Positions 31,233 through 60,131 of a stretch of DNA of 64,000 nt are shown here, one piece after another. The stretch is from Bacteroidales bacterium. GTDB taxonomy: Bacteria > Bacteroidota > Bacteroidia > Bacteroidales > WCHB1-69. Positions within the stretch are counted from its first letter, which is position 1, and every line of letters starts with the position of its first letter. The notes beneath the pieces are model-generated. The model was given only the letters and a program-made list of their open reading frames with translations, did no database searches and had not been told where the DNA came from. A program made the position numbers and the translations under genes. The stretch covers positions 5,708 to 69,707 of the forward strand of contig JBGURX010000038.1 in assembly GCA_045132235.1 (NCBI GenBank), read 5' to 3'.

Positions 31233-31240
31233 TAAATTTG
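31233..31240 (+). promoter_or_regulatory. -7 box (TAnnTTTG) for porQ
   Basis: TAAATTTG lies 16 nt upstream of the ATG at 31257. Confidence 0.5.
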
Positions 31241-31256
31241 CAGCCAAATTTTTAAG

Positions 31257-36920: not shown

Positions 36921-38162
36921 CTATTTATTGGGCACCAATTTCTGGAAATGAAGCCCTTTCACGGCCCACTGTCCGCTATCGGCCGTTGAGGTGTGGTAGC
37001 GGAAGCCGATACGGATGTCGCCTGACAGGCCATTCAGAACGCCCACCTGCGCACGGTAGAAGCTCGCGCCATCGCGATAGTCGCTGTATGTCAGCGGATT
37101 CCACTCTGTGGTGGCAGGATCGCCGGTGTAGTTGGTGGTGTAATAGATGGTGAATTTGCTCTGGGCGGTGGCATCGGTGTTGAAGAAGGCCTCCTCCACA
37201 TAGAGGGTGCTTTCCTCCACGGTGGCTTTCGGCAGCACGGGCGACACGAGCCACTCGTCGGTGGCAGCATTAACGCCGTTGTGCAGCATATAGTCCTGAT
37301 TGGTGACCCAACCGGTATAATCCCAACCCGTACCGTTGGCGGTGGAGACAGAATATACATCCTGCACAGAACCGAAGGAGAGCACGTCATCGCTGGTGCG
37401 CAGCATCAGCTGGTAGGTGGAGTTATATACGGAAAGGATGCCGACCAAGTCGCCGGTACCGCCGGGAACCAACGCCTTGCGGAACTTGGCATAGTTGGAG
37501 GTACGCACCACGAGGTTGGTCACCGCCTCGCCGTTCACGCTCTTGATGGCGCGGGAGGTGGTGGCAGTCTCTTCCGACCACGGCTTACCCACTGCATCAG
37601 TGGCGAATTCCACATTGTGCAGACGCACCAAGCGGCACACGTTGCCCTCGTTAATGTCGTAGGCGCTCATGATGTCGATGGGCGCCACCGGCTGCGGCAG
37701 CCCGTCGCGATGGAGGTACTGGTCCAAGTAGTGGCCATCCACACGGCCCACATCGCCGTTGTAAATCCAGCCCACCTGATACACGCCATGGTAGTTGCCC
37801 ACCACAAGACCGCTGCAGTCAAGATAGACGGTCTGTCCCACGGGATAGGTGTGGCACAGGCCTGTCTGGTTGATTTGCAGCTGGATGGCGCCGGTCTCGT
37901 CCTGGATGACCATATTCTTGTAGAAGTTGCCACCCTCGTCGGAACTCACCACCGTAGCCCGCACGATGAAGGTCTCACCGGCATGGCAGATGGAGTCGAG
38001 ATGCCCCGCGTTGGTATATACATTGATGATATCTTGAATGGTCTTGTTAGCAGGCTCACCGGTATAGGTCGGCACCTCAAAGGCGGGGTCTTCCCACTTG
38101 TTGCAGGAGGTGAAGGTGAGCACTGCGGCCATCATCAGAATCAGGGAAAGATATTTTTTCAT
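36921..38162 (-). CDS. Surface lipoprotein, N-terminal OB-fold-like (DUF5689-like) domain plus C-terminal choice-of-anchor-J-like domain (paralog A)
   Basis: 413 aa with lipobox LTFTSC. Core [31 protein letters not shown]. The C-terminal WLVSP...IYYTTNYTG...IRIGFRY pattern. A clear paralog of the next gene. Confidence 0.7.
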
Positions 38163-38180
38163 GATGAAAGGATTTTAGGA

Positions 38181-39422: not shown

Positions 39423-39440
39423 AGTGAAGATTTTTATCTG

Positions 39441-41954: not shown

Positions 41955-41985
41955 ATCCTTAATTTTGGTGATACTTTTCCATCTG

Positions 41986-41993
41986 CAAAAATA
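41986..41993 (-). promoter_or_regulatory. -7 box (TAnnTTTG) for the receptor/lipoprotein operon
   Basis: Plus strand reads CAAAAATA, which is TATTTTTG on minus, 31 nt upstream of the ATG at 41954 and downstream of the giant-gene terminator. Confidence 0.5.
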
Positions 41994-42017
41994 CATCAAA
42001 ATATTGAAACATCCACC

Positions 42018-42087: not shown

Positions 42088-45000
42088 CTACTTGGTCACC
42101 ACCAATTTCTTGGTGATCACCTTGTCGTTGTCGCGGAGGTTCACGAAGTAAACACCTGCTGACCAGCCATTCACATTCAGATCGATGGTACCGGTGTGCG
42201 TTCCATTGACAGCGTACACCACCTTGCCGCTCATATCGGTCACCGTCAGCTGGGCGCCATCCACAGTACATTGTACATGGACGATGTCGCGAGCCGGGTT
42301 CGGATAGAAATCGAGCTGGCTGAGGTCGTTGTCGTTGATACCCATAGGAGCGCCATTGGGGCTGGCAGGCACGCTGTAGTTCACGGTAGCCGTAGAGAGC
42401 ACTGTGCTCGTAGATACGGCAGACTGACCGCCAGCGTACTGGGAACCGTTGTAAGCGATACCCACATCACTACCACGCTCCATTTCAACCAAGGTAAACA
42501 CAATCTGATATTCACCCGGCTGGTTCCAAGTAGCATTAATCTGGCTATTGGTAGCTTCCATGAAGTGGAGATAGAAGTAGTTGAAGTTGAACATGTTCAT
42601 CAAGCTGAAGGTGTTTTCAATCATGTTGCCGCTTCCCTGCTCCAGGTCACTGCCCACATAGGTGTTCAATGCCGGGAAGTAGGTAGAGATGTGGATGTTG
42701 GCCACATTGTTCACCGTTGACATCGGCTGTTCACCTCTGAGAATCACATAGTTGACAGCCAATTGAGTATTCGGCTCATAGCCGTTACCCTCACAGGTCA
42801 TCTCCACAGTGGAAGTAGCAGACTGAACGGTCGCTTCATTGTAACCATTCACCAGCAGAGTCGGCAGCGTGCCATCGCCCTCTTCCTCTTCAACGGCATC
42901 CACCGTGAAGGTGATGTTGGCCGTGGACAAAGTATCGCCTACCGTGCTGAAATAACCGCCAATGTTACGGGTATGGCCATTGAACGTGTAGGTCAGATTC
43001 TGGTCTTGACCATCGTTACGGCTCATCAAAGCAAAGGCGATCTCGTACTCACCGGCTTCCGTGAAAGAATGGGTAATCTTGTTATCCCTGCCATTCAGGA
43101 AGTGCATGTAGAAGTAATCGAGGTAGTTGACACTGAATCTGAAGGTGTTGCCCGGGATGGTGCCTTCGGGTTCATAGACCACTTCACCAACATAGTTGTT
43201 CAGCAGCCAGGTACCCATATAGAGCTCACCACCGCAATCAGCATTGATATTGGTTACCAGCTCACCATCCTTGAAGACTGAGTAAGCGATGGCCACCTTG
43301 GTATCTTGATCCATGCTGTTGGCGTAAGCAATGAGGCTGTACTCATTTTCACCTGTTTCTTCAGCCACCATGAACGCTTCACCGTTATGCGAATCGGTCA
43401 CCGTCAGTTGCAACGTAACAATACTGTCGCAACCGGTAGCAGCCGTCAGATTGACGGTTTGCGAGCCGGCGGACTCGAAGATGAGGCCATTCCATTCATA
43501 CGGCAGTTCAGTTACGTCGATGGATTCTTGAACCGTCACATTATAGATCGGGTTGATGGTCAGATTGACCTCGAAATAGGTATCGCAGCCTTCCTGTTCC
43601 GGAATATAACCGGTGATCACATCATCACCACTGGTATATTCAATACCGTCAGGTGCAACATAGGTAGTACCCTCGCAAATTGCTGTATCAATCAACAGGG
43701 TAGGATTCTCATTAATCACGATGGTGACATTTTCGCTGACCACGCAAGCACCGGCATACACGCTGTAGGAGATTGCGGACTCGAACTGGTCTGCATCAAG
43801 CGACAGTACATTACTACCAATAACAGTTTCGTTGTCAATGGTCCATCTGATTGTGTCGGCATTGCCACTGACTTCGAGTGACAGAGCAGCCGTTTCAGCA
43901 TTGGCGCAGACTTCAGTACCGAACAGTTCCACTGTCAGCATCGGGTCGAAGACGATCGTCACGCGGCGGATGCTGTCGCAGCCGTTGGCAGCCTGCTGAG
44001 CGTACACCACGTTCACGGTGGTGTCACCCATCACCTCAAACTCCTGCCCGTTCTCACTATAGATGAACGGCATGTCTTGGTCGGCGCAGAAGTGAACCGT
44101 ACTGTCTGCATAGGCCGTCGGCAAAATATGCAGCGTCAACTGGGTGATGCTGTCGCAAGCGTTGTCAGTCTCATCATAGTTGTAAGTCACAACGACGTAA
44201 CCGTCCTCGTCCTCTACCCAGTCGCTGGTATTGGCACGTGTCACAGGCATATTGCGCAGCTCGGCGATTTCCTCAGCGGTCAGTTCAAATCCGTTTTCTG
44301 AATAGCCGTATCCCTCGCAAACCTCGCCGCTGACCTCAGCAAAGCCGAATTCGTCATTGTACACCGGATTGATGGTCAAGGTAAGGCGGGCATAGAAGAT
44401 ACCGCAATCGGTACGGCCTGTCTCCACCATGGTTACATACGTTCCAGTCTCAGCAGTTTCGTCTGCACTCACATTGAAGATGTCATCCACATAAGGCTCG
44501 CCTCGGCAAACCGAAGCCTCATAGTCAACAGTGTCGCCCACCGGAACAGCGGTCAGCACGACGGAGTCGGTAACTGAGCAGCTGATAAACGGGAAATCAG
44601 AGATGGGTTCGAAGGTCTGGTTCTGGTCAGGATCGATAATCTGCTGATCATTGGGCTGATCAATGACAGGAGCATACGGCAGATAGTTGTTTGTTCCTGT
44701 GAGATAGATGGTCACGGTTTCGTTCACCGTCACACTGGCTTGAAGCGGGTCGTTACCCACGATTGCCGTACCTGCCGGACCCCAAGTGTAGTCATCGGCA
44801 TTTCCAGTAGCCGTCAAAACAATCTCCCGACCTTCGCAAACACGTGTACCCGGAGTGTAGATGCCCACTTCAGGCAGCGGGAGGAGGAAGATGGTCAACG
44901 TAACCGTGCTGTCGCAACCGGCCTCTGTCTGGCCATTCAAGGTGAACACAGCGGTATTGGCACCGTTAGCCACCTGTGCGATGGTGTCGGCAGAGAGGGT

Positions 45001-48000
45001 GAAGTTATTATCCTCGTACGGAGCATTCTCGCAAACGAAAGCCGTGTCGAACAGTGCATAGGCCGGATTCACCGTCAGGGTGAAGGTGACCACCGTGTCG
45101 GATACCTGATACGGGTCGGAGAACTCGATCTGCTGAGGTTCTTCAGTGGAAGCCGTGAATTCATGACCGTGATATACGAACGGCACTTCGGTGGAGCAGA
45201 TAACCGTGTCGAGGTCCATATACACCGTGTCAACAGAGTAGTGCATCACTATAGAGTCAACAGCGAGGTCGCCGGCGATTCTGGTAGAGCCGCCACCACC
45301 CACCAAGTGCGGGTCATTCTGATTGAAGGTCAGGACATAGTCTTCACCTCCTTCGCGGCCACGCAGGTAGAACTTGATCTTGTAATCACCCGGCAAATCC
45401 CAACGTGCAGTGAGTTGGCTCGGGGCCTGGTTGAGGAAGTCAAGGTAGAAGTAGGTGTAGTAATAGTTCATTATTCTGAAGGTATTGGCGGGAATGCTGC
45501 CCGTACCCGTACGCAGCTGTCTGCCGAAGGATCCGTGTGCATCGGCATAGTAAGTGCTGAAATAGACATATCCGAAGTCTTCCACATTGTCGAGGATTTC
45601 ACCGTTACGGTAAATCTCATAGTCAACAGCGACCTTCATGTTGTCAAGACCGCCGCTGGTGACATCCACGCTATACTGAGCGGTCTCACCCAACTCAGCA
45701 GCCTCGGTGACCGTATTGATGTCGAAGCCGGTGGTAGAGGTACCCAGTACGATATGGAGGATGCTGTCGCAACCATTTTCACGCTGGTAAACGATATCAT
45801 ACTCACCTTCGGTTTCGTAGATATGGTCGTCATCGTAAGCGTAAGGCAGCTGCATCGGAGCCACCGTCACATGGAGGGTGTCGCTGTATGCGCTGTTCAC
45901 TGTCAGATGCAGGTTGTAAGTGGCGGTGCAATCGCCGTAAGGAGCATCCGTCGTGTAGTTGCCAGATTCTGTATAGGTTTCACCGGTCACATCCCAGATG
46001 AACGAACCGCAAGCCATCGCAGCGGTGTCGATGACCACGCTGCCGTCGGTGCTGTGAAGCAGATGCAAAGTGGTAATCAAGCTGTCGCAACCCGAAGCGT
46101 AACGCACTGTATCGTAGAAGTCACCGACGCCGGTGTAGGTCACGCCATTCCATGTGTAGCTGCTGCAGTCATCGTTCAAGGTCACCGTGAACTCGTCATA
46201 AGAGACCGTGTTGACCGTCACGTTAATCGGATACATCTGGTAATTGCCTTCATTACCGGCGAAGACCTCGTAGTAGCCTGCACCCGTAATTTCAGTGCCA
46301 TATTCGTAGAAGGGCAGATCACGTTCGCAAACCACCGTGTCGAGGCTCGGCATTGTATCCACAACACCCACATGGAAGTTGATGTAACGGATATCAGCAA
46401 AAATTCTGCCATTAGGCTGAGAACCTGCGCCACCCATCACCTGACCGTGGTCATCCGTATAAGCATAGTCCATACCGCCATCCATGCCGATCACCACCAG
46501 TTCGAGTTTGTACTCGCCGGGTTCATTCCAGCTGGCCGTCACCGTGTTGGTGAGGGTAGCGAAGTAGTCGGCATAGAAGTAGTCGTAATCGTAGTTGTAG
46601 AGCGAGAAGGTGTTGCCCGGGACATTACCGGTACCCGTTCTCACCACATCACCGAACTGCTGACCCACCTCAGGCATATAGGTGGAGATGCTCACACTGC
46701 CATAGTCGCTCACAATGTCAATCAGCGTGTCGTTCTTATAGAGATTGTAGGAGATGGCCATTTGTGCACCCGGATAGTCGCAATCCTTGCGGAGGTTGAA
46801 TTCCGCAGAAGCAGCCTGGTTCACCGGCATCACCACGTCGGCAACCGGAACATCCAGATAAGGCTCGTTGGAGATGGTGAACTCAAGGGAGTACACGATG
46901 CTGTCGCATGCGTGATTATCAAGGTCGCTGAAGCTACTGACGCAAGGCACCACCTGTGTACGATAGATAACGGTGTCAGCCATTGTCACATCACCGATGG
47001 CCTCACCCGTCACAGGCCACACATAGGGCTGCAGCGGGTTGTTGCAGTAATGTACTCTCACAGAACGCTCGATCGGATAGGTCACATCCAGCATGAGATA
47101 TACCACACTGTCGCAGCCGCCGTCCGTCGTATATTTGAAGGTGTAGGCACCCGAGTGATCGCAGACGGTTGGCGGATAGTAATCGGGATCAAACACATAG
47201 TTGAGGTCAGAGGCACAGATATGGACAGTCGTATCCTTTGCGATGAGATTGACGCGGAGTGAAGCCTCGGCAGTGGCCGAACAGCCGTTCTCTGCATCGT
47301 ATCCCGTCACCGTATAAACCCATGTACCCTGAGCCGCCGGTGTAGCGTTCACATCGGCACCCACTTGAGCGTCAAGTCCTTCACCGCTCCATGAGAAGGT
47401 TGCACCTTCCAATGTGCTGCTGGCACTCAGGTGGTAGGAAGGACCAAGGCAAACGGTGTCAAAAGCAGGAGTAACCGTGAGGTGGAGTGACGGATGAACC
47501 GAAATCTGCACCGCATTGCTGTAGCCCACGCCGCATGCGTTGGTGTCGGCATAGCGCAGCCACATATTGTTCCACGTATCAGCATCCACACCGTTGTTCA
47601 CATCCACAGCCGTGAGGGTGTTATCAGCGGTAAGGGCGCTGTCGGCACTCAAGTACCAGAACGTGGCCAGTGAATTCAAGCCGCCATCGTCCACAACCTC
47701 AGGTGTCTCAAGGTTGAATTCGTCGCCGGAGCAGTAGGTGGCGCCTGAATAGGCAAGCTCACCCAGTGTCGGGACATCGTTCACCAGCAACAACACGGAA
47801 TCGGTATGCATTGCACCACATTCATTGCCAATGTAGTAGCGCACCCATGTGTTGTTCATACCATAGTCGATGATGGTGTCATCGGAGAAGCGGATGTAAT
47901 AGTCTGAACCGTAAACTGCCGTGTACTCCCAGCCTTTCACGATAGTACCACCGAACTCATGTGTTACAGGCGGAACGACGGCCAAAGTCTGACCGGCACA

Positions 48001-51000
48001 AACCGCACCTTCAAGCGCGGTGAGGTTCTCTGCCCAAGGAGACTCCCAGAACTCCAGCGTGATGGTGTCGGACAACACCTCGCCGCAGCCATTGGAAGCA
48101 TAATACCATGCCTTCACCGTATCAGAATAGCGGAACTCCTGTGAGGCATTGAAATCAACATCCTCGCCATTAATGTTCAGACGCCAGCCTTGTTGAGTAT
48201 CGGCATTGCTGTTGTTGTGCCACTCGATTTCAGGCACGTAGGAATCCCAATCGAAGGTGGTCGGTGCACACATCGGGTCGGGCTGCTGCAGTGATGCAAC
48301 AACCGGCAGGCTATCCACCGTAATCTGAACGGCATTGCTGTAGCCTGTCTCGCAGAGTGTGGTCACATAGTAGCGCACCCACCAGCCGTTGTAGCTTTCG
48401 CTCACGGCAACTGAATCGGTGAACTCTTGGAAAGTCACACCATCCTGTGAGCATTCCCAACCCTGTGCCTCCACTGTTACGCCAAGTTCTGACAGATAGG
48501 TGGTGAACGACGGGGTTGCAATACCCAGCGGATTGCGGGCGCAAATGCGTGCAGGAGCCTCGATAGTGGCAATATCAGCAGGATTCAGCACATAGATGGT
48601 CTTGGACTTGCACTCGGTGGCACCGCAGACTTCAGATTCCAGTCTCACGAAGTAAGAGGTGGTAACCGTCGGGGTGACTGTCACAGAAGCGTAGCTGCTT
48701 TCCATACCCCGTGAAATCTCCACGCCGTCGCAGCTTCCAGAGGTCCACACGTAATCAGTAATGTCGCCTTGTGAAGCACCCACAGCCGAAATGGTGGCAG
48801 ACTGACCTGCGCAAATGATCGTATCGGTAGCGTTGAGCTCCATTTCCTCGACAGAAGAAGGATTGCAGATCCTCACAGAGAATCTACGAGCGTTTTCTGA
48901 TACACAGCCGAACTGAGTCTCACCTGTGAGGGTGTAATAAATGTTACCCAAGAAGTAGCGGTTGGAAGTTGCTGACGGGAAGTCGCTGGTGGAAGCCGTA
49001 GCATCCGCGCCATAACCCGCATGTACTTTCAACACGTTGGTACTCGGAGCGGTCAGCACATCGCCGATGTGAATACCCTGTGTATTGTTGGACGAAATAC
49101 CATAAGGTCTGAAATAGAGGTTAGCATCGCTCATCACATAGAAGCTGAATTTCTGACCAGCGTAAATTTCGACAGGATTGTCCAACGGGATGTTGCAAAG
49201 CGTTGCCTGGGTCTGGTGGAGGTTTCCATTGTAAACGAGGTTCCAGCCCGCGCTGTTGGTGGCTGCACCCTCGCAGCTACCCAAACGGCAATACACCTTG
49301 ACATTCGATGCGTTGTTTGCATTGTCGGAGTAACGCGGGTAGAAGCTGATGGTGTCCACCGTAAGGTTGGCGCTGGCGGTCAGATCCACAAAGACACCCT
49401 TTCCGTCTCTATCGTAAATATCCAGTTCTTCCGGATTGGTGGAGAAGGAACCCGACACCGAGATCAGGTCGGTGGCAGCGTATGCAAAGAAGTAATTATT
49501 ACCACTAGCGTAATCATAGGGAGGCTCAATATGGAACGCTTCCCCACTGTTGCTATAGCCAAGGAAGTTGTTATCGGCATCCATCCACAGCAGCCACGGC
49601 TGTTCTTGCTCGGCGTCACTTTGAGCGTATGCAGTCTGACCAGCGAGCAGGATTTCAGATCCGCGACAAACACGATTGCTGGCAGCAGGTTCTCCATTTT
49701 CATCGGACACGTATGCAATGCTAGGTCTATCGATTGCTGTTATGGTCACACTGACTTCAGTAAGCTGTGACTCGCAGAGGTATCTTTCGGGGAAGTAGTA
49801 ATGGATACGCACATAACCGTTCTGGGTATTGCCATCGGGTTTAGCGGGGTAAACGGATACGCTGCCCGCGAGGGTTTGTGCGTCGGTGAGGTAGAGGTTG
49901 CTGTTGAGCAGGCAACCTGACGGGTAGTTCTGTGCGGTTTCTTCGGTATAGATGTAGCCGCTACCGCCGCCACCGCCGCCGTTGATGTTACTGCCTGCGC
50001 CAGCGGCACCGCCGTACCAGCCGCCGCCGCCACCGCCGCCATTGAGGGCGACACCTGTATAGGCTCTACCGAAGGCATTGTTGCTATGGTCGCCAGAATA
50101 GGTCTGGCCACCGCCCTCGCCGCCGGGCACCTCCTGCGTGCCACTCAAGCCCGACTCGCCGATTCCGCCGGCCAAACCGCCGCCGCAACCACCAGCCACT
50201 TGATAATTGCCGCCCATATAGCCGCTACCGCCGCCACCACCAGCCACAATCAGACGGCTGAAGTAGTGGTCGTTGCTGTTCACATCGGCATGGAGGAGGG
50301 AGATGTCGGATGCACCGCCACCGCCACCGCCGATACCTTCAGACGCGGGCTGACCGCCGTTGTAACCGCCGTTGTTGACGTGGCCATTGACACTGCCGCC
50401 CACATACACAAACAGGGAGTCAATGCCTTCGAGCTGGGTGAGCGTACCGCGGGAGTAACCGCCACGGCCGCCTTTCGCCTCAGTAAAATCAGTTATCATG
50501 TTACCGCCATCGGCACCCCACACCTCCATGGTGATACGGGTAGCCTCAGCGGGGATTGCGAAGCCCTGCACATCGCCAGTGAACACGAAGTCGCGCTGGC
50601 CCTCCACCGAGGAGGCAAGCAGGCTACGATAAGCCTTCACGTAGTAGGTGGTATTGGCAATGTTCTTGCCGCCTTCGAGATCGAAATAGATACCGCGGTT
50701 CACCTCTTGCGTGCAAGCGGCATCGGAGTACCAAATATAAGTATAGCTATCATCAGGATTGTCAATCACCAGTCTGCCGGGAGTACCGCAAACCAACTGC
50801 AGGTTTTCCACTTCAGGCTGTACGAGTTCCTGTATCGTGATGATAACCGGAGTAGGATCAATCAAACAGAGTGTATCATATCTGGGAGCGAGATAGGAGA
50901 TGATGGCGACGCCATTGCCTTCGCGGCCGGTGATGCTTGCACCGCCTTCCGGATTCGGCATGGCAGCGTTGCCAGAGATCAGGGCAGGACTGTAGAGGAC

Positions 51001-54000
51001 GCTGGTGTAGTAGCCGCTACCGCCGCCGCCGGCACCTGCATTGGGGGCACCTGATGCACCGCCGCCGCCGCCGAACCAACCGGCACCGCCGCCGCCGCCG
51101 CCAGCGTAGCCGCTGCCGCCATTGCCGCCATAACCAGAGCCGCCTGCAGTAGCACCCGTAGCACCTGTACCACCCATTTCGGTGGTGGCACCTGTACCGT
51201 TGACACCCGTCACATTGGTGTTACCGTCGCCGCATGCGTTACCGCCACCATATCCACCATTGCCGCCAGCGGAAGCACCGCCACCGCCACCGGCCACAAG
51301 GATACGATGCTGCACGGTATTGCCGCCCAAGCGCACATCGGTGGCACCGCCACCGCCAGCACCCGGACAATAGCCGGCATTACCCGTGCTGGCAGAGCCG
51401 CCATTACCGCCGCCGTTGAAACCGCCTTCAATGGCTCTACCCGTCTCACCATTAACACCGTCGTTGCCTTGTCCACCGACATTCACATACAGTCTTTCGC
51501 CCTCTTCAACGTGCAGCGTACCGACAGCATAACCGCCGTTGCCACCATGGCGGGTGACCGACGAGCTGGCCACTGCATTACCACCCTGGGCACCCCAGAG
51601 TTTCAGCGTCACTTCGTTCACATCGTGAGGAACGACGAATTCGAAGGTTTCGCCTGAGTAGTTAATCACAGAATCCACCAGATCGATACCTTCTGTGGTG
51701 CGGAGGCCGAAGGCGCGCACATAGTAGGTGGTGGTAGCACCGATGGCCGGGAGTTCCCATGTGGTACCCTGATGCAGCAGCTGTGTACACTGCGCATCGG
51801 CGTACCAGTTGTAGAACAGGCCTTCAACGGGATTGACCACCTCAAGGGTAGCCGTCTCACCGCAGGAGATTGTAGCTCCATTCACCTGCACCGGCTGGGC
51901 CGGAGCCACGGTAAGGTTCACCGTACCATTCTGGGAATAGCAGCCCTTGCCCAAACCTCTGTAAGAGATGGTCACATCATCCAAATTCACGCGCAAGGTA
52001 CTGCTTGATGAATATTGATGACGGAAAGCGATGTAAACCGTACGACCTGCGTAGGATGACAGGTCATACACATGCTGCTGATAGCCAGCGGACTGGACAA
52101 TAGTTTCAGAATTGATCATATTGACGAAGTCGTTGACCGAAGTACCCGTAGTAGATACATACACCTTAAATTGCGTAGAACTGGTACTGCCGGTACTCAT
52201 ATTCTGTCCCATGGTCCACCAAGAGAGGGAGACCTCCTGCGAGCCTTCCGGAATATAGACAGCCGGCGTCACCAGCCAGTTATCCGGTGACAGATAAGGA
52301 CTAAGCAAGGTCGGCACATACAACAATGACGATACAAAGTTGCTACCTGTATGAGCAGCATCAGCGGCGTTGGTCAGTGACCATCTATAGCCATCACCAT
52401 CATTGTCGATACGAGTCCAATTGGCAGGAATAACGCCTCCTTCGAAGCTCTCGTTCAGCAGGTAATCTGCCGGCTGGAGGAGGTTGCTGTAGCTGCGCAG
52501 GTAATAGGGATAGGTGCCTTCACCTTGTGTTACAGTGAGGGCCGTACCCTGAGCGAGCGTATTTTCAAAATTGGCATCATCGCTCCACTCATAGAGGAAG
52601 GCCTCATCCGGATTGCTCACCTCCAAGGTGACCGGCTGGCCGCAAGCGGCTTGCATATCCTCGCCCGACGGTATGGGGTGGCTGTTCACCTCCACCGTAT
52701 GTGACACCGGGCTGGAGGGGCAGGCTGACTGCAAGCCCGCTGCCACATGCCACAGGGTGGTGGTTTCGGTCAAGTAAGGCAGTGTAACCGTGGAACCCGT
52801 AGCATAAAGCTCGGTACAGCCGGCATCCAAGAACCATGAGTGCTGCACTTCCACATCTTCCACAGCGGTTAATTCAGCGGAAGCACCGCAATAGAGCGGA
52901 GTAGAGTAGTCCGTTATCAGATTTTCGTAGGGGTAAGTCCACGGAGCCAAAATGGTGATGGTGTAACTACCTTCGGATTCCACCTCACGGCTTTGATCAC
53001 ATCTATCCAAAATCGAACGGGTGTATGTGTAGCTACTGCCTACGGAAAGGGTCTGAAGTTCTTCTACGCTAATGGTATAGTATGCATTATGTGCATTTTC
53101 ATTGTCGATGAGTACACCATCGCGGTACCAATTGTAGCTTTCCGCTCTTCCGTTGTCGAGGGAGGCGATGGTGAAAGCTGCCGACTGACACACCTCGCTG
53201 CTACCCTCTGCAATTGCACCACCAACAGAAGTCGATGCAGGAGCCAGAGTAAGCTTAAGATTCAAACGATAATTCTGGACATACTTCGTACCGCTATATG
53301 AACCCATATTGTAAGGATTGGGATCATAGCTATCGCTATGGCCAGATATCAATGCACTCGTAGCCTCTGTATAATAGAAGTAGAGAGTACTATAACCCGA
53401 AGTGTATTCATGCATACCTATCATCAAGTTACTATTGCCATCATAATCAAATGGTTCGTCAAGCGTAATGGTTGTCCAACCCTGACTAAAGGTTACGGTA
53501 CCACTAAACACCCTGTCAGCCGCTGTTACAGGCTCCCAGTCTGTATTGTCGGCGAAACTGCTTCTGGACACATTCTTCATGAAAACATCCACGCTATTGG
53601 TTTGTGTGCTACTGCTTGACATGTTAAAACTAATTGAAGTAATTTGACCAGAACCGCCAATTTCAGCAGCAGTATAAATCTGCTCCACATAAGAGTAACC
53701 CCACAATGAATTGAACGGGCCATAATAGGTTGTTCCCGTGCCATTTCCAATCGTAATTTCATCAGGAGTAGCTAACGCGCTCTCTGGTCTGAAGCTAACC
53801 ACATTGCTCCAGTTGGTGCTTTGTCCGAGGTCGGAGCCGCAATCGGCTTTCACTCGGGCATAATAGTTTGTACCAGGTATCAAGCAGTTAATGGTGAACG
53901 GATTTTCGGTCACCACCTGCTGCTGTGTGGTAGTGCTAGTGAAACTAGCGCTGGTGCTGTATTCCAAAATCCAGCTGGTGGCGTCACCTGCCTGATCCCA

Positions 54001-57000
54001 TCCAAGAGTGGCGCTCCACGCCGTCAAGTCATTCACATGGAGGTTGGTGGGGGTGGGACACATTTCCAAAGTGGTGAAATAGATAGGATCGCTCCAATCG
54101 CTCTCCACACCATTACAAACACTCTGCACCTGGGCACCATATAAGGTTTCAGGAGACAGACCCGTAAGGGTATAGGGATTCGAAACACCGCTCAACGCAT
54201 CGAATGTGCCTAAGTTAATGCCGTTCGTCGTCTCGGTTAAATTAACGCCATCACCATCTGACATACTTTGTAAAAACATCTCAAAAGTATAGGTATGACC
54301 TGCTTGGAACACAAAGTCATTAGCTCGTGCATCTCTGTTACCATTTGCCCCCGCTATGTAAATCTTATCATTAGGAGAGGGGTTGGTGATACACCAGTCG
54401 TAAGTACCGGCAGGGAGCAAAATTGTCACGCTATTGTCTCTCACCACATTTTCAGTACTACAATCGCCGTCTGCATTGGCAGGGATCTTGATTGGGAAGT
54501 TCGCATAAATACCCTCGTTACCTGAGCAGGCAGCTGACAAATAGCCAGAGGTCGGGATAACGGAACCATAGAGACTATGGGTGGGGTCAAGCAACAGTTG
54601 GTATCCAGTACCGTCGCTCCACACATCACCCGCCACCAATGTTACGATGGCGAAATCGCCTTCCACACTGCGGATATTGAAGCTTTCACCATTGCCGCTC
54701 CACAGGAGTTCCGTACTGTTGTAAGTGGTGTTGTCGGCACTGAGGTTGGTGGGCGCCGTAATGGCGAAGTTGGCCACCAGATGACGGTCGCCCGTAGCTC
54801 TGAACATATAAGTGGCATCGGTAGAGACCACCGTTCCATTTTCCGTCCAGTTGACGAAGCCCAGACAGCCTTCACCAGAAGTTGCAGTAAGGATGACAAT
54901 ATCCTGACATGCGGCATAGACACCCGTACCGCTCACGGTGCCCGTACCGCTCGGACTGACCTCTGCTGAAACAGTGGCCGTACCGGCGCTCGTCTGGTCG
55001 CAGAGGCCAATATGCAGCTGATTCTTTACGTTCGTCACATAACCCGAATAGGAAGAGGGGCTTGACGGATTGAAGGCTGTACCATCCTGATAAATGTAGA
55101 TAGCCTGATTGCCATCAGCGGGATAGACATAGCAAGCCATTCCAGATGAATAAGAACCCGTCTTGTCATTCACCACCACCACGAGATTGTTGACGCCATC
55201 GTACTCAAACGCGCGGTCCAATTCGAAAGTAATCCATTCACCAGCGGTCATCGAAACGGTAGAAGTGCCGCTATATACCTTATCGGCATTGGTTACCGCA
55301 ATCCAGTCGCTGCCACTTGCAAAACTTTCCTTTGCAGTATGTTTCATGTAGATGTCGTATTGACGAGCGCGTGTTTCACCTCCGTTGTAGAAGGAGATGC
55401 TGCTGATGGTACCGCCGCCGCCGATTTCGCAGGGGGTATAGATCTGCTGCGTAAGGGAGTAATCATAGAAACTTTCCGAGGGAAGGAAAGCATTGGTGAC
55501 GGAGCCACCGCTGCCCAACACTTCCACGGTGGGACAGACGCGGGCCAATGTGGTGAAGGTCACCGGTGAAGACCAGCTTCCTGGCTCACCCTCGCAAACG
55601 CCCTGCACCCGCACCTGATAAGTGGTACGGAAGGCAAGGTTGTCGAGTGATGTGCTGGTGGTGCTGATATTCGTAGCGGCATCAATCCAGCTGTCGGCAG
55701 AGGCAAGCTTATACTGTACATTGTAGCTGTCGGCGTTGCCGCTCCAAGTAACATCGGCGCTGGCATCACCAATATTGGACACTGCCAAGCCGCTGACGGG
55801 GCAGGTTTCCAGTGTGGTAAAGGAAACGGGAGCGCTCCAACCACTATTGGTACCGTCGCACACACTTTGCACCTGTACCAAATATGTGGTGCCGGCATCA
55901 AGTCCAGAGAGGGTTGTGCTTTCCGAGTTGCTAGAAACCACAACAGGTGTACCCGGAATTTCCATCAAAATGTCATCAATATAGAACTTGTCCTCATAAT
56001 TATTCACACTACCATCCTTATCGTATGACCATTTGAAGGTATGAACACCCGCAGCAACAGAGTAGGTATGTTGTCTCCAGTCTATTTCACCTTCTTCTTG
56101 TAATTGTTGCTCTCCATCAATATAGAAGCGACCATGGTCGCAACAGCTTTCTGAAGACACACGGCTATAGAAGCTGATGGTACCTGCCACAGGGTATGTA
56201 GCCATCAACGAAATTTCCGATGAGGTGGAGACGAAACCTGAGCTACTGGCGAGACAGTAAGCACCACTATGCGGAGTAACGCTGGAGATACTCCACGGAT
56301 AAGTATTATTATTATCGAAGGCTGCATCTATGCTGCCATCATTGAAATCATACGCACCCACAATGGGGTAATAGCTTATGTTGTATGAATCGCCACTCCC
56401 ATTCCATGAAATATCTGCAGTATGGGCTGTTTCATTACCCACAACAAGAGATACTGGCGGAGAGCAGGACTCAAGAGTCGTAAACGTAACAGGACTGCTC
56501 CAAGTGCCACCATTGCCGTCGCAAATCCCCTGCACCTGCACCAGGTAAGTGGTTTCCGGGGTGAGGCCGGTGAGGGTGGTACTCGTTGAGCTGCTGCTCA
56601 CTATTGTGGGGGTACCAGGAATCAATAAGAGAACATCATCAATATAGTATCTATCCTCACCGTTGTCCACACTAACATCCTTGCTGAAAGACCATGTGAA
56701 GATATGAGTACCCGCAGCGACGGAATATGTATGCTGTCTCCAATCAATTTCTCCCTCCTCACTATATTGCTGGACTCCGTCAATATAGAAATAGCCATGG
56801 TCGCAACAGCTTTCTGAAGATACACGGCTGTAGAAACTGATGATGCCTGTCGAAGTGAATGTAGCCGTCAGCGAGATATCTGAAGTAGTGCTGGCGTAAC
56901 CACCGTTTCCACTACCAATACAATAGCTACCACTATGTGGAGAGGTAGATGAAATGCCCCACGAATAGGAGGAGGAATTGCTGAAACCGGAGATGCTTCC

Positions 57001-59622
57001 ATTGTTAAAATCATAGGAGGCCAATTCCGTCATGGCAGCATAGCTCACATTGTAGCTGGAGCCAGAACCACTCCATGAGATATCGGCGGTACGACCAGTT
57101 AAATTGCTCACAATAAGACTAGTAGGAGTAGGAACATTCACCACGAAGTTGGCTGTCAGCGTGCGAGCGCTACTGACCGTGAACGAATAATTCGGATCAG
57201 TTGACACCACCGTACCATTCTCAGTCCAGTTTTCAAACACATAACAGCTGGACGAGGGAGTGGCGGAAAGGCTGGCGGTACCGCACATGCTGACGCTACC
57301 TGCACCGCTCACCGTACCTGCTCCGCTGGGGTTGACATTGGCGGTGATATTGGCCGTACCCGAGCACTTCGCTATCGAGATATTGTCCACTGCCGCAGGA
57401 GGCTGGGTACCGCCACTGCCGTCGTTGGCCCACATGAAAACGAGGTAGTAATTGCCCGCTGACACGCTGGGGGTAGCCAGATGGGTTTGCCAGTCGGATG
57501 ACACATTCAACTTAGAGCCGCCATCCAAAGAGATCCAGCCACTTGGAGAAGAGCTCATATAGCTATATGAGGAAGTACTACCATCTGGGAGCACACCTGC
57601 AGTAAAAGTGGCCGAAGCAGGAGCCAGCCACACTCTCAAATAGTCATAACTACCCTCACCATAGCCTTTCCAGTCGTAAGATACATTGTATTGTCCTCCC
57701 CCAAATGACAACAATTTGGTGGCATAGGATATTTGAATACTGCCGACAGTGTATGCATTGCTGGATCCACCGTTGTTGGAAATGTAAAGGCTATGGGTGC
57801 CACCGTGGTTGGTAGCCGTGCCGACAACCCATGCATTTGTACTGTTCACGAACTCCCACTGGGGAGAGCTCTCAAAGGTCTCTGTCCAACCATTGTCAAC
57901 TGAAGTAGCTTCTATCGAGGTAGTGAAGGAGATAGGGCCTGCCCAGTTGCTCTGCTCACTGCCGCAATTGGAACGGACATAAACCTCATACGATGTCAAT
58001 GGAGAAAGTCCTGTGAGAGTGTAAGAAGAGGTAGTGATTCCAGTAACGGTGACGGGGGCACCAGAGCCCATGGCGGAAATATTGACATTGTCAATGCCAA
58101 GTCCATAACCATATTCATCGGTGTGCCTGAAGCCGATTTGACAATTAGCAGCACAAGCGGCTGCAGGGAGTGTAACACTCTGTGTTGTCCACCCAGAATG
58201 TGCCGCTGTTGTACTAAAAACAGGTCCCTGCCAAGCGCCTCCATTTAAGCGGTAATAAACATATAAGTAATCGATGTCACCACTCCAAGAACGATTCACA
58301 TAACTGAATGAAAGAGTGGCGTTAGATGCACCGCTCAGATCCATGGAGGGTGTAATCAGGTAGGTCGTATTACCTGTTGAAGAATGCGTTATCATTGCGT
58401 TATAATTTCCCGAAGCGGCACCTGTACTTGACGAATAGTCACCCGTACCAACCGACCACGAACTACTTCCAGAACTCGACCAGCCCGAGGGCATGGAACC
58501 TCCTTCAAATCCCTCATTCAGGTATGTGGTGGACGCAACAGTCATATACTGCAAATCGTAACTACTAGCATCTCCCGTCCAACTAACAGAAGCCGTGCTT
58601 GACGTTATATTTCCAACAGTAACATTGGTAGGTCTTGCGCAGGAAGGTCCTGAACCCGGGGTAATGCAAAGCTTAATATTATTGCGGTATTGTGTATAGG
58701 ACTTGCTTCCACTAAAAGAAGTGGTTGAAAGTTCTGGACAATAGCTATCGCTATACCAATGAATACCACTGTAAAAATCTGTTGTGTGTGTACGGAACTT
58801 ATATGAACTACCTGGATAGCCACTGGTTGGGTCATACATACAGACCAGGAGGTTGCTGCTACCATCATACTCAAACGGAGTGGTGAGGTTGATGGTTATC
58901 CAGCCCGAACTACTGGCAGAAAAGGTGCCATTCCATACCAAATCACTGGCTGAAATAGGCTCCATATCGGTGTTGCTTGAAAAAGAAGATCTACTCACAT
59001 TCTTCATATAAAGCTTTACATTCGACATAGAGAAGCTACTGGAATAGTCATAATAGAAGCTGATGGAGTTGATGGTACCCGCTGTCCCTATTTCATCAGG
59101 TTTGTAAAGCTGTTGAGTTAGCGAGTAATTAAAATACATATTGACAGGGTAGTAATAGTAAATAGTTGTACCACTACCAATCGACACCTCATTGTCGCAG
59201 TCAGCTGTGGAGCCACCGCCGCCGCCACCGCCAGGGCAAGTGTAGGTTGCAGGGAATCCACTTCCGCTACTACTGGATACAAGCGTCTGTCCACCAACAG
59301 AAACTGTATAAGAAGTCTCACCATCCCACGAGCCGGAGGTCCATGTCAACTGAATAGTAGTGCCGGCGGGAATATTAACCGTACCGCTATTTGAGCTACC
59401 ACTACTGATAGTCAGAGTAGCAATCGTGGAACTCGTACTTGCATTAATTACATTAATGGCAGCTCCGTTCCATCCGTCACCATAGCTGTCTGTAAGACTA
59501 TAGCTTAAGGTACACTGTCCCCGTAAGCTCTGTCCGAAGCCGAAGCACATCAGCATCGCCAACAGCAGGGGGAGTTGGGCAATGCGGGAAGATTTTTTCT
59601 GAAAGGATAAAGTTGCTTTCAT
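42088..59622 (-). CDS. Giant (5,844 aa) mosaic T9SS-secreted surface protein
   Basis: Longest ORF in the window. The track start is 59691, but the in-frame ATG at 59622 is directly followed by a signal peptide (MKATLSFQKKSSRIAQLPLLLAMLMCFGFG). The C-terminal 75 aa match a T9SS type-A CTD. My residue count of the track protein closed exactly at 5867, and spot checks at both ends agreed with the nucleotide sequence. Confidence 0.9.
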   Translation of the reverse strand: MKATLSFQKKSSRIAQLPLLLAMLMCFGFGQSLRGQCTLSYSLTDSYGDGWNGAAINVINASTSSTIATLTISSGSSNSGTVNIPAGTTIQLTWTSGSWDGETSYTVSVGGQTLVSSSSGSGFPATYTCPGGGGGGGSTADCDNEVSIGSGTTIYYYYPVNMYFNYSLTQQLYKPDEIGTAGTINSISFYYDYSSSFSMSNVKLYMKNVSRSSFSSNTDMEPISASDLVWNGTFSASSSGWITINLTTPFEYDGSSNLLVCMYDPTSGYPGSSYKFRTHTTDFYSGIHWYSDSYCPELSTTSFSGSKSYTQYRNNIKLCITPGSGPSCARPTNVTVGNITSSTASVSWTGDASSYDLQYMTVASTTYLNEGFEGGSMPSGWSSSGSSSWSVGTGDYSSSTGAASGNYNAMITHSSTGNTTYLITPSMDLSGASNATLSFSYVNRSWSGDIDYLYVYYRLNGGAWQGPVFSTTAAHSGWTTQSVTLPAAACAANCQIGFRHTDEYGYGLGIDNVNISAMGSGAPVTVTGITTSSYTLTGLSPLTSYEVYVRSNCGSEQSNWAGPISFTTSIEATSVDNGWTETFESSPQWEFVNSTNAWVVGTATNHGGTHSLYISNNGGSSNAYTVGSIQISYATKLLSFGGGQYNVSYDWKGYGEGSYDYLRVWLAPASATFTAGVLPDGSTSSYSYMSSSPSGWISLDGGSKLNVSSDWQTHLATPSVSAGNYYLVFMWANDGSGGTQPPAAVDNISIAKCSGTANITANVNPSGAGTVSGAGSVSMCGTASLSATPSSSCYVFENWTENGTVVSTDPNYSFTVSSARTLTANFVVNVPTPTSLIVSNLTGRTADISWSGSGSSYNVSYAAMTELASYDFNNGSISGFSNSSSYSWGISSTSPHSGSYCIGSGNGGYASTTSDISLTATFTSTGIISFYSRVSSESCCDHGYFYIDGVQQYSEEGEIDWRQHTYSVAAGTHIFTWSFSKDVSVDNGEDRYYIDDVLLLIPGTPTIVSSSSTSTTLTGLTPETTYLVQVQGICDGNGGTWSSPVTFTTLESCSPPVSLVVGNETAHTADISWNGSGDSYNISYYPIVGAYDFNDGSIDAAFDNNNTYPWSISSVTPHSGAYCLASSSGFVSTSSEISLMATYPVAGTISFYSRVSSESCCDHGRFYIDGEQQLQEEGEIDWRQHTYSVAAGVHTFKWSYDKDGSVNNYEDKFYIDDILMEIPGTPVVVSSNSESTTLSGLDAGTTYLVQVQSVCDGTNSGWSAPVSFTTLETCPVSGLAVSNIGDASADVTWSGNADSYNVQYKLASADSWIDAATNISTTSTSLDNLAFRTTYQVRVQGVCEGEPGSWSSPVTFTTLARVCPTVEVLGSGGSVTNAFLPSESFYDYSLTQQIYTPCEIGGGGTISSISFYNGGETRARQYDIYMKHTAKESFASGSDWIAVTNADKVYSGTSTVSMTAGEWITFELDRAFEYDGVNNLVVVVNDKTGSYSSGMACYVYPADGNQAIYIYQDGTAFNPSSPSSYSGYVTNVKNQLHIGLCDQTSAGTATVSAEVSPSGTGTVSGTGVYAACQDIVILTATSGEGCLGFVNWTENGTVVSTDATYMFRATGDRHLVANFAITAPTNLSADNTTYNSTELLWSGNGESFNIRSVEGDFAIVTLVAGDVWSDGTGYQLLLDPTHSLYGSVIPTSGYLSAACSGNEGIYANFPIKIPANADGDCSTENVVRDNSVTILLPAGTYDWCITNPSPNDKIYIAGANGNRDARANDFVFQAGHTYTFEMFLQSMSDGDGVNLTETTNGINLGTFDALSGVSNPYTLTGLSPETLYGAQVQSVCNGVESDWSDPIYFTTLEMCPTPTNLHVNDLTAWSATLGWDQAGDATSWILEYSTSASFTSTTTQQQVVTENPFTINCLIPGTNYYARVKADCGSDLGQSTNWSNVVSFRPESALATPDEITIGNGTGTTYYGPFNSLWGYSYVEQIYTAAEIGGSGQITSISFNMSSSSTQTNSVDVFMKNVSRSSFADNTDWEPVTAADRVFSGTVTFSQGWTTITLDEPFDYDGNSNLMIGMHEYTSGYSTLYFYYTEATSALISGHSDSYDPNPYNMGSYSGTKYVQNYRLNLKLTLAPASTSVGGAIAEGSSEVCQSAAFTIASLDNGRAESYNWYRDGVLIDNENAHNAYYTISVEELQTLSVGSSYTYTRSILDRCDQSREVESEGSYTITILAPWTYPYENLITDYSTPLYCGASAELTAVEDVEVQHSWFLDAGCTELYATGSTVTLPYLTETTTLWHVAAGLQSACPSSPVSHTVEVNSHPIPSGEDMQAACGQPVTLEVSNPDEAFLYEWSDDANFENTLAQGTALTVTQGEGTYPYYLRSYSNLLQPADYLLNESFEGGVIPANWTRIDNDGDGYRWSLTNAADAAHTGSNFVSSLLYVPTLLSPYLSPDNWLVTPAVYIPEGSQEVSLSWWTMGQNMSTGSTSSTQFKVYVSTTGTSVNDFVNMINSETIVQSAGYQQHVYDLSSYAGRTVYIAFRHQYSSSSTLRVNLDDVTISYRGLGKGCYSQNGTVNLTVAPAQPVQVNGATISCGETATLEVVNPVEGLFYNWYADAQCTQLLHQGTTWELPAIGATTTYYVRAFGLRTTEGIDLVDSVINYSGETFEFVVPHDVNEVTLKLWGAQGGNAVASSSVTRHGGNGGYAVGTLHVEEGERLYVNVGGQGNDGVNGETGRAIEGGFNGGGNGGSASTGNAGYCPGAGGGGATDVRLGGNTVQHRILVAGGGGGASAGGNGGYGGGNACGDGNTNVTGVNGTGATTEMGGTGATGATAGGSGYGGNGGSGYAGGGGGGAGWFGGGGGASGAPNAGAGGGGSGYYTSVLYSPALISGNAAMPNPEGGASITGREGNGVAIISYLAPRYDTLCLIDPTPVIITIQELVQPEVENLQLVCGTPGRLVIDNPDDSYTYIWYSDAACTQEVNRGIYFDLEGGKNIANTTYYVKAYRSLLASSVEGQRDFVFTGDVQGFAIPAEATRITMEVWGADGGNMITDFTEAKGGRGGYSRGTLTQLEGIDSLFVYVGGSVNGHVNNGGYNGGQPASEGIGGGGGGASDISLLHADVNSNDHYFSRLIVAGGGGGSGYMGGNYQVAGGCGGGLAGGIGESGLSGTQEVPGGEGGGQTYSGDHSNNAFGRAYTGVALNGGGGGGGWYGGAAGAGSNINGGGGGGSGYIYTEETAQNYPSGCLLNSNLYLTDAQTLAGSVSVYPAKPDGNTQNGYVRIHYYFPERYLCESQLTEVSVTITAIDRPSIAYVSDENGEPAASNRVCRGSEILLAGQTAYAQSDAEQEQPWLLWMDADNNFLGYSNSGEAFHIEPPYDYASGNNYFFAYAATDLISVSGSFSTNPEELDIYDRDGKGVFVDLTASANLTVDTISFYPRYSDNANNASNVKVYCRLGSCEGAATNSAGWNLVYNGNLHQTQATLCNIPLDNPVEIYAGQKFSFYVMSDANLYFRPYGISSNNTQGIHIGDVLTAPSTNVLKVHAGYGADATASTSDFPSATSNRYFLGNIYYTLTGETQFGCVSENARRFSVRICNPSSVEEMELNATDTIICAGQSATISAVGASQGDITDYVWTSGSCDGVEISRGMESSYASVTVTPTVTTSYFVRLESEVCGATECKSKTIYVLNPADIATIEAPARICARNPLGIATPSFTTYLSELGVTVEAQGWECSQDGVTFQEFTDSVAVSESYNGWWVRYYVTTLCETGYSNAVQITVDSLPVVASLQQPDPMCAPTTFDWDSYVPEIEWHNNSNADTQQGWRLNINGEDVDFNASQEFRYSDTVKAWYYASNGCGEVLSDTITLEFWESPWAENLTALEGAVCAGQTLAVVPPVTHEFGGTIVKGWEYTAVYGSDYYIRFSDDTIIDYGMNNTWVRYYIGNECGAMHTDSVLLLVNDVPTLGELAYSGATYCSGDEFNLETPEVVDDGGLNSLATFWYLSADSALTADNTLTAVDVNNGVDADTWNNMWLRYADTNACGVGYSNAVQISVHPSLHLTVTPAFDTVCLGPSYHLSASSTLEGATFSWSGEGLDAQVGADVNATPAAQGTWVYTVTGYDAENGCSATAEASLRVNLIAKDTTVHICASDLNYVFDPDYYPPTVCDHSGAYTFKYTTDGGCDSVVYLMLDVTYPIERSVRVHYCNNPLQPYVWPVTGEAIGDVTMADTVIYRTQVVPCVSSFSDLDNHACDSIVYSLEFTISNEPYLDVPVADVVMPVNQAASAEFNLRKDCDYPGAQMAISYNLYKNDTLIDIVSDYGSVSISTYMPEVGQQFGDVVRTGTGNVPGNTFSLYNYDYDYFYADYFATLTNTVTASWNEPGEYKLELVVIGMDGGMDYAYTDDHGQVMGGAGSQPNGRIFADIRYINFHVGVVDTMPSLDTVVCERDLPFYEYGTEITGAGYYEVFAGNEGNYQMYPINVTVNTVSYDEFTVTLNDDCSSYTWNGVTYTGVGDFYDTVRYASGCDSLITTLHLLHSTDGSVVIDTAAMACGSFIWDVTGETYTESGNYTTDAPYGDCTATYNLHLTVNSAYSDTLHVTVAPMQLPYAYDDDHIYETEGEYDIVYQRENGCDSILHIVLGTSTTGFDINTVTEAAELGETAQYSVDVTSGGLDNMKVAVDYEIYRNGEILDNVEDFGYVYFSTYYADAHGSFGRQLRTGTGSIPANTFRIMNYYYTYFYLDFLNQAPSQLTARWDLPGDYKIKFYLRGREGGEDYVLTFNQNDPHLVGGGGSTRIAGDLAVDSIVMHYSVDTVYMDLDTVICSTEVPFVYHGHEFTASTEEPQQIEFSDPYQVSDTVVTFTLTVNPAYALFDTAFVCENAPYEDNNFTLSADTIAQVANGANTAVFTLNGQTEAGCDSTVTLTIFLLPLPEVGIYTPGTRVCEGREIVLTATGNADDYTWGPAGTAIVGNDPLQASVTVNETVTIYLTGTNNYLPYAPVIDQPNDQQIIDPDQNQTFEPISDFPFISCSVTDSVVLTAVPVGDTVDYEASVCRGEPYVDDIFNVSADETAETGTYVTMVETGRTDCGIFYARLTLTINPVYNDEFGFAEVSGEVCEGYGYSENGFELTAEEIAELRNMPVTRANTSDWVEDEDGYVVVTYNYDETDNACDSITQLTLHILPTAYADSTVHFCADQDMPFIYSENGQEFEVMGDTTVNVVYAQQAANGCDSIRRVTIVFDPMLTVELFGTEVCANAETAALSLEVSGNADTIRWTIDNETVIGSNVLSLDADQFESAISYSVYAGACVVSENVTIVINENPTLLIDTAICEGTTYVAPDGIEYTSGDDVITGYIPEQEGCDTYFEVNLTINPIYNVTVQESIDVTELPYEWNGLIFESAGSQTVNLTAATGCDSIVTLQLTVTDSHNGEAFMVAEETGENEYSLIAYANSMDQDTKVAIAYSVFKDGELVTNINADCGGELYMGTWLLNNYVGEVVYEPEGTIPGNTFRFSVNYLDYFYMHFLNGRDNKITHSFTEAGEYEIAFALMSRNDGQDQNLTYTFNGHTRNIGGYFSTVGDTLSTANITFTVDAVEEEEGDGTLPTLLVNGYNEATVQSATSTVEMTCEGNGYEPNTQLAVNYVILRGEQPMSTVNNVANIHISTYFPALNTYVGSDLEQGSGNMIENTFSLMNMFNFNYFYLHFMEATNSQINATWNQPGEYQIVFTLVEMERGSDVGIAYNGSQYAGGQSAVSTSTVLSTATVNYSVPASPNGAPMGINDNDLSQLDFYPNPARDIVHVQCTVDGAQLTVTDMSGKVVYAVNGTHTGTIDLNVNGWSAGVYFVNLRDNDKVITKKLVVTK
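42091..42324 (-). other. T9SS type-A C-terminal sorting domain of the giant protein
   Basis: LSQLDFYPNPARDIVHVQCTVDGAQLTVTDMSGKVVY...GWSAGVYFVNLRDNDKVITKKLVVTK. Confidence 0.85.
49777..50595 (-). other. Glycine-rich domain copy 2 (Pfam Gly_rich / ALK-LTK GRD type)
   Basis: aa 3033-3305 of the track ORF: ITMEVWGADGGN...GGRGGYSRGTL...LFVYVGGS...GGGGGGASDISL...RLIVAGGGGGSGY...GGGGGGGWYGG...GGGGGGSGYIY...NGYVRIHYY. Confidence 0.75.
50887..51654 (-). other. Glycine-rich domain copy 1 (Pfam Gly_rich / ALK-LTK GRD type)
   Basis: aa 2680-2935 of the track ORF: VTLKLWGAQGGN...GGNGGYAVGTL...LYVNVGGQG...GAGGGGATDVRL...RILVAGGGGGAS...GGGGGGAGWFGGGGGAS...GGGGSGYY...GNGVAIISY. Confidence 0.75.
54226..54654 (-). 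other. Gingipain/HagA adhesin-like domain (DUF2436 type)
   Basis: aa 1680-1822: DVWSDGTGYQLLLDPTHSLYGSVIPTSG...IPANADGD...LLPAGTYDWCITNPSPNDKIYIAGANGNRDARANDFVFQAGHTYTFEM...DGDGVNL. Confidence 0.7.
55804..57132 (-). repeat. Tandem in-frame duplication (2 units of about 221 aa) inside the giant gene
   Basis: Units aa 854-1076 and 1077-1296 align throughout. An identical 26-mer CCATGGTCGCAACAGCTTTCTGAAGA occurs at 56795-56820 and 56132-56157, giving a period of 663 nt. Confidence 0.85.
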
Positions 59623-60131
59623 AGTTGATGGTTTATGATTAATACTAATTTTGATATCTGTATATGGTATATGTTTGTTTTCAGGTTTCACGGATAAGGG
59701 CTTATTTTTTTTCGCCAGTTTGGTCTTTTATCAGTTGTGCTATGATAGTTTTTTAGATTTGATTATCAATTTTTGTTTTGTTGACGCGCTTCAACGCGCC
59801 TGTGCGATTTTGTTATATACGTTTTTCCACTGTTTTAGTTTCAAGTGAATGGATATTTTTTTTCAGCCGATGGGCATGAGCGAGACATGCGTATAGAAAA
59901 ATCAACATCGGTTTGTGGATAAAAATGGAGCATCAGAGCGCACAATTGCACCACACAACCCAACGGCGGTCAAAGAACCTGCGTTTACAATGAACGGACA
60001 ATCAAAAGTTTAGCAAAAGCATAAACCTTTCCCATCCAATTCAAAAAAATCGGGTGCAAGATAATAAAAAAATCAATATCATTCCGCAAGCCACGAAAAA
60101 AAAGTTCTACACAGGTTTGCAAGATATTTTA

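Follow-up and report, generated by a model that had tools for sequence, protein, structure and literature searches.

What is the segment that recurs four times near the C terminus of a giant open reading frame (ORF) on a 64,000-nucleotide stretch of Bacteroidales DNA (contig JBGURX010000038.1; the whole stretch is called the window below)? An initial annotation, made from the sequence alone, had described four copies of a Tyr-rich module of about 150 residues for which it could name no family. Our analysis confirms the repeats and defines a domain family that was uncatalogued until now. Its kind is familiar, that of the immunoglobulin-like (Ig-like) modules of giant surface proteins, and no new mechanism is revealed by it. 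With moderate confidence, we read the module as a lineage-specific Ig-like β-sandwich of ~160 residues that serves as an element of a surface stalk and, in its last copy, as a spacer ahead of a type IX secretion system (T9SS) C-terminal sorting domain (CTD).

The four copies and their predicted fold

The giant ORF is a single stop-free frame that opens with GTG (Table 1). Its true start is probably Met24 (MKATLSFQKK...), 23 codons past the listed GTG at window 59622-59691 (minus strand), because a signal-peptide-like stretch begins there; the residue numbers of the initial annotation are therefore probably shifted by 23 with respect to the real protein. Counted from the GTG, every motif quoted for the four copies, here termed M1 to M4 from the N-terminal side, was located at the residues and nucleotides given for it, and the common motif order of these ~150-residue repeats passes a formal test. 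Pairwise BLASTP aligns the segments at 26-39% identity over 117-156 residues (38-95 bits). Smith-Waterman scores for all six pairs lie between 136 and 263, against means of ~34 (standard deviation ~6; maxima 51-72) in 500 composition-preserving shuffles per pair, which corresponds to z = 16-37. A hidden Markov model (HMM) of the four copies recovers exactly those four from the protein, and a six-frame translation of the window contains no others. M1, originally begun at residue 4296, should start ~18 residues earlier, whereby it gains the opening strand present in the other copies. The short Cys-anchored modules of the initial annotation are likewise real: in front of each of M1, M2 and M3 lies a small ...GCDS... 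module. The label Tyr-rich, in contrast, overstates a mild enrichment (8.5% Tyr in the modules vs 6.2% in the rest of the protein); Phe, Trp and Tyr together amount to 14.3% vs 11.2%. A recent tandem duplication or an assembly artefact was rejected as the origin of the repeats in view of their 26-39% identity and the positional orthologues of each copy in other species.

Table 1. Position of the giant ORF and of its C-terminal elements in the window
Feature	Residues	Nucleotides	Strand	Remarks
Giant ORF	5867	42088..59691	-	5867 codons from GTG; four modules within the last 1600 residues; T9SS type A cargo
M1	4278-4442	46366..46860	-	Clade 'quad1'; one N-terminal strand added to the start of the initial annotation
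M2	4658-4822	45226..45720	-	Clade 'quad2' (SH-aLRT 92); copy modelled alone
M3	5438-5598	42898..43380	-	Clade 'quad3'
M3-M4 linker		42871..42897	-	Acidic, AVEEEEGDG; predicted disordered; model residues 172-178 with pLDDT <50
M4	5608-5774	42370..42870	-	Clade 'quad4'; CTD-adjacent copy, 2 residues from the CTD envelope
T9SS type A CTD	5796-5865	42097..42306	-	PF18962, 2.8e-13; TIGR04183, 2.9e-14

An AlphaFold2 model of M2, computed with an alignment of 44 sequences, is of high confidence (mean predicted local distance difference test, pLDDT, 94.2; predicted template modelling score, pTM, 0.88) and all-β, with about 10-12 strands and one short helix. In it, the conserved D-Y-E-I-Y motif forms a long strand and the S-T-Y segment the next one, 'PGDYKIKFYLRGREGGED' folds into a long hairpin, and a GG-containing segment together with the last hydrophobic strand closes the sandwich. 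The YxYFY motif, which had been taken for one conspicuous strand, is a strand only in the three residues 'YFY' and is followed by a short helix, LDFLNQ. Foldseek returned nothing for this model at E <= 1e-3 in the PDB and BFVD; the nearest neighbours were a V-set Ig domain (CAR D1), PapD-like and MSP domains and the PorA N-terminal domain, with TM-scores by query (TMq) of 0.30-0.41 and probabilities of 0.9-1.0. As modelled, the fold is an Ig-like sandwich of generic type, enlarged by sizeable elaborations, and has no close solved relative. A second AlphaFold2 model, based on 12 orthologous sequences, comprised M3, M4 and the CTD with the two intervening linkers. Each of the three domains is predicted at a pLDDT of about 80-95, and both linkers, EEEEGDG (residues 5601-5607) and NGAPMGINDNDLS (residues 5778-5790), fall below 50; with a pTM of 0.49, therefore, no fixed mutual orientation of the domains is predicted.

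What is conserved in the module? Across 213 non-redundant instances, the columns conserved to at least 55% are, in M2 numbering, Y34, G40, Y49, G74, P77, F91, F95, G111, Y113, L119, G125, Y132, G141, G142 and V161. Each of these columns is aromatic, aliphatic, Gly or Pro; among polar or charged columns, none is conserved in these instances. This is the signature of a fold, and of neither a catalytic site nor a universally shared ligand site. An enzymatic role was rejected in view of the absence of conserved polar residues.

Occurrence and placement

Searching 1.84 billion representative proteins with the four-copy profile (HMMER) yielded 223 proteins at E <= 1e-3, 66 of them at E <= 1e-10. Weak matches with many short stretches were PKD, He_PIG, Big_9 or Flg_new repeat proteins, which match in a single hairpin only. 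Local iteration on the 150 of the 223 matches listed resulted in a family set of about 102 true proteins with 231 domain instances, on which the counts for family, CTD and layout rest. Three of the proteins are from this genome: besides the giant protein, they are a protein on contig C51 (3583 residues, with SprB repeats) and a partial one on C19 with a single pre-CTD copy. Whole-genome searches, run with a 44-member profile, detected the module in 17 of 18 other genomes of the same genus and, with the own genome counted, in 102 of 152 genomes and 11 of 22 genera of the same GTDB family. Only one of about 395 sampled genomes from the rest of the order carries it, and none of 400 in a phylum-wide sample from which the own genome was left out. 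The module is thus restricted almost wholly to a single Bacteroidales family of the rumen and herbivore gut. In the sole carrier genome outside this family, which belongs to a different Bacteroidales family, a 4000-residue ORF (L093:3926-15928, G240:C1) holds nine tandem copies with a period of about 340 residues, followed by a Flg_new_2 domain and a type A CTD; horizontal transfer or a relic distribution may lie behind this occurrence.

The initial annotation had raised the question of whether homologues always occur in T9SS cargo. The giant ORF itself combines a terminal Por_Secre_tail/TIGR04183 domain with a T9SS machinery encoded in the same genome, where PorU, the sortase (1217 bits), and SprA, the translocon (2509 bits), both exceed curated cut-offs. 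A CTD profile, made without iteration from five CTDs that Pfam had verified, detected a terminal CTD in 90 of the 102 family proteins, with no internal matches, as against 9 of 51 non-family proteins of the same list; in each of the six proteins scanned with Pfam, the CTD was confirmed. The remaining 12 family proteins end abruptly, some of them within a module, or are N-terminal fragments. They look truncated, and no complete member lacking a CTD was seen among the 102, in line with the suspicion of the initial annotation. The last module precedes the CTD envelope by a median of 8 residues, and about 20 residues separate the end of M4 from the Pfam CTD match. Thus M4, like its counterparts family-wide, sits immediately N-terminal of a type A CTD, the position of the pre-CTD domains of the immunoglobulin superfamily (IgSF).

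The family follows three layouts. In the first, four copies occur at conserved positions, as in the window protein. In the second, for which we use the term bookend, one copy follows the signal peptide and the other precedes the CTD; this layout is represented by 53 representative proteins of about 1900-5500 residues, and the family's largest genus typically shows two matches per genome, both within one ORF of 3300-4100 residues. The third layout consists of tandem arrays of three to nine copies. In a maximum-likelihood tree of 230 instances, the four-copy subfamily forms one clade (96 in the Shimodaira-Hasegawa-like approximate likelihood-ratio test, SH-aLRT), within which each position groups with the same position of other proteins (nine clusters at 50% identity); the N-terminal and pre-CTD copies of bookend proteins also fall into separate clades. 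The window copies are therefore old paralogues in fixed positions and no recent duplicates. The paralogue on C51 (G000:C51:44205-55019; L091:2203-12954, minus strand) is itself a bookend protein, with a diverged copy after the signal peptide and another directly before the CTD.

Kinship and role

Does the module belong to a family already described? When the whole protein, the four copies, 44 members and four subfamily consensuses were scanned against Pfam and NCBIfam, no match to the module rose above threshold, and the four-copy profile found no chain among the PDB sequences at E <= 10; no part of the module is covered by these searches, in agreement with the initial failure to name a family. 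In proteins that consist of a module and a CTD, precomputed Pfam annotation contains PF18962 alone. For one 635-residue homologue (P0022), the precomputed list gives PF26689.1, an accession that our local Pfam scan of this protein did not report; its place in the list puts it N-terminal of residue 180, outside the module.

The module could, however, be a PKD (E-set Ig) domain that has diverged and gained two large insertions, an outlier of a known superfamily and no separate family, which we consider doubtful. When the 44 members were scanned individually against Pfam, 7 showed sub-threshold PKD_4 matches (best 2.8e-4) and 4 weak PKD matches; the sole match of the 44-member profile among PDB sequences was a PKD chain (6aem, E 0.12); the low-scoring tail of the representatives search is made up of PKD, He_PIG and Big_9 repeat proteins; and hhalign gives a probability of 85-87% against PKD and He_PIG repeat profiles built from this tail. 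However, the hhalign match is limited to 27 of ~165 columns, namely the F-G hairpin with the shared motif 'F-x-x-PG-x-Y-x-I-x-L-x-V..G', and forcing a longer alignment gains no confident columns, whereas in a control the module subfamilies align with each other over 148-168 columns at 99.6-99.9%. Neither the four window copies nor the four subfamily consensuses reach the PKD gathering score, having no PKD match or one at E >= 0.085; the best Pfam matches of the consensuses are Y_Y_Y (0.02) and PKD (0.085). PKD domains are β-sandwiches that span about 80-90 residues and carry a WxFGDG-type motif. At about twice that length, the module has extra strands and a helix, no full-length profile match to PKD, and no WxFGDG motif in its alignments; its ~80 extra residues comprise the STY strand, the G-x-IP-x-NTF loop, the YxYFY strand with its helix, and the GG-x-D and I-GG loops. 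What it does share with PKD (PF00801/PF18911), He_PIG and Big_9 E-set Ig repeats is the F-G hairpin 'x-F-x-x-P-G-x-Y-x-I/V-x-L/F-x-V/L...G' and an occurrence as repeat units of bacterial surface proteins. By none of the profile tests applied is the module a PKD member, but a remote Ig-type ancestry in common with PKD may still exist. Kinship to Flg_new repeats and to the CTD itself was rejected, with hhalign probabilities of 0.4% and 0.9%.

What, then, might be the role of such a domain? The conservation pattern, the beads-on-a-string models and the strict CTD-adjacent placement are the reasons for which we read it as a structural sandwich. Each module would fold on its own as an Ig-like β-sandwich that retains the PKD-like 'PGxYxIxF' F-G hairpin, and would act as a rigid bead of a stalk in which flexible linkers and the small Cys-anchored modules lie between the beads. 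The CTD-adjacent copy would take the role of the gingipain IgSF domain, as a stable sandwich that parts the site of CTD cleavage and attachment of anionic lipopolysaccharide (A-LPS) from the cargo, and would protect the cargo during export. In Porphyromonas gingivalis, PorU cuts off the CTD and joins A-LPS to the new C terminus, and the pre-CTD IgSF domain of RgpB, Kgp and PPAD has been proposed as a spacer or insulator, its linker being flexible yet protease-resistant (PMC4804311). Ig-like domains of cargo are also reported to be essential for stability in T9SS secretion (Sato et al., 2018, as cited in PMC10202324, ref. 54). If the PorU/A-LPS scheme of P. gingivalis holds here, the module-rich C-terminal third would constitute the cell-proximal part of the stalk, which would reverse the membrane-distal placement proposed in the initial annotation.

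The precedents are instructive in both their likeness and their limits. Like the IgSF domains of RgpB, Kgp and PPAD (5ag8, 1cvr, 4rbm, 4yt9), the module is a predicted β-sandwich directly N-terminal of a type A CTD, with a short flexible linker in between, and the RgpB IgSF-CTD tandem 5ag8 is matched at E 7.8e-6, albeit by the three-domain model only and with a low TM-score (0.17 by query, 0.38 by target). In contrast to these domains, the module has about double their length (160 vs about 85 residues), shows no detected sequence similarity to them, and also occurs N-terminally, internally and in tandem arrays. The other matches of the three-domain model in the PDB are the Ig/FN3 strings of adhesins, titin and fibronectin, with the Ig stalks of Gram-positive bacteria at the top (Bap BSP domain, 7c7u; PrgB, 8beg; SdrD B domains; E 4.5e-9 to 1.7e-6). 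These, too, are beads-on-a-string sandwiches in surface-anchored giant proteins, but at TM-scores of 0.15-0.2 the likeness is that of a generic string of sandwiches only, and secretion and anchoring depend on sortase/LPXTG there vs T9SS/PorU here. Unclassified β-sandwich modules are common in giant bacterial adhesins. The family defined here makes annotatable roughly 600 formerly unassigned residues in this protein and both ends of many proteins of 2000-5500 residues from uncultured rumen Bacteroidales, and its very regular placement, right behind the signal peptide and right ahead of the T9SS CTD, renders the role of CTD-adjacent sandwiches testable outside Porphyromonas.

Several observations weigh against a stalk and spacer. 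No solved Ig domain resembles the module more than weakly (TMq <= 0.41), so that 'Ig-like' denotes a class assignment on the basis of the model and no close match. A pre-CTD role is impossible for the N-terminal copies. A clade for each position in the four-copy proteins, together with separate clades for N-terminal and pre-CTD copies, exceeds what a generic spacer needs, and the conserved positional identity and very regular bookend layout hint at copy-specific partners. Finally, the aromatic cluster could be a binding surface. This last point leads to an alternative that we judge unlikely, in which the module binds carbohydrate or another ligand, the aromatic YxYFY/NTF residues forming a platform for plant cell-wall polymers or host glycans and the giant protein acting as a multivalent adhesin for feed particles. 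The enrichment in aromatics, the rumen and herbivore-gut habitat, the positional clades, which suggest that the copies differ in role, and the adhesin-type domains in the same protein (Cleaved_Adhesin, choice-of-anchor J, DUF2436) are all consistent with it. However, no carbohydrate-binding module (CBM) family is among the Pfam matches of the copies, the 44 members or the consensuses; by fold, its neighbours are sandwiches of the V-set Ig, PapD and MSP kinds, and no CBM jelly-rolls; polar or charged residues conserved family-wide are absent; and the conserved aromatics, with F91 and Y113 the best kept, alternate like residues of a buried core.

It is very unlikely that the module is a docking unit whose N-terminal and CTD-adjacent copies bind within or between molecules, letting the proteins loop or polymerize head-to-tail on the surface: the strikingly regular bookend layout, its recurrence throughout the family's largest genus and the separate conserved clades of the two copies would suit it, but M3 and M4 do not pack together in the tandem model and the window protein has no N-terminal copy. 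The chance is fainter still for the self-complementary form of this idea, in which the copy behind the signal peptide pairs with the one before the CTD and the giant T9SS proteins of this rumen lineage thereby polymerize head-to-tail or loop; were it true, it would be a new route to surface fibres in Bacteroidota, and the four differentiated copies of the window protein would be docking sites for partners such as the bookend paralogue on C51.

Genomic setting

N-terminal of the modules, Pfam and NCBIfam detect FN3, Cleaved_Adhesin/choice-of-anchor J, DUF2436, Ig_7 and ALK/LTK glycine-rich domains in the giant ORF. A locus search with the last 430 residues of the protein among genome contigs returned no relatives. 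The adjacent housekeeping gene ribBA shares 91-98% identity with genes of Bacteroidales metagenome-assembled genomes from sheep, yak and cattle rumen and from horse faeces, which identifies the organism as an uncultured Bacteroidales bacterium of the herbivore gut.

The giant gene is followed directly downstream (window 36921-41999, minus strand) by genes for an 852-residue protein without an NCBIfam match and for two tandem 413-residue paralogues, which resemble the M949_1556 lipoprotein family at 5.5e-41 and 9.1e-32, under its cut-off; ribBA and then apbE follow this pair. The window holds two further T9SS cargo genes, at 24710-27298 (plus strand) and 29217-32309 (minus strand), one with a type B CTD (TIGR04131, 1.3e-11), the other encoding an M6-type metalloprotease with a type A CTD. 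At its 5' end, the giant gene adjoins truB and anmK on the opposite strand (window 60054-61964, plus strand). On a metagenome contig from ENA (L094:1628-4342), a 262-residue ORF consisting of a module and a CTD lies directly upstream of truB and anmK, with which it shares the strand; the locus seems to have been rearranged among relatives, or the ENA contig to hold a truncated gene.

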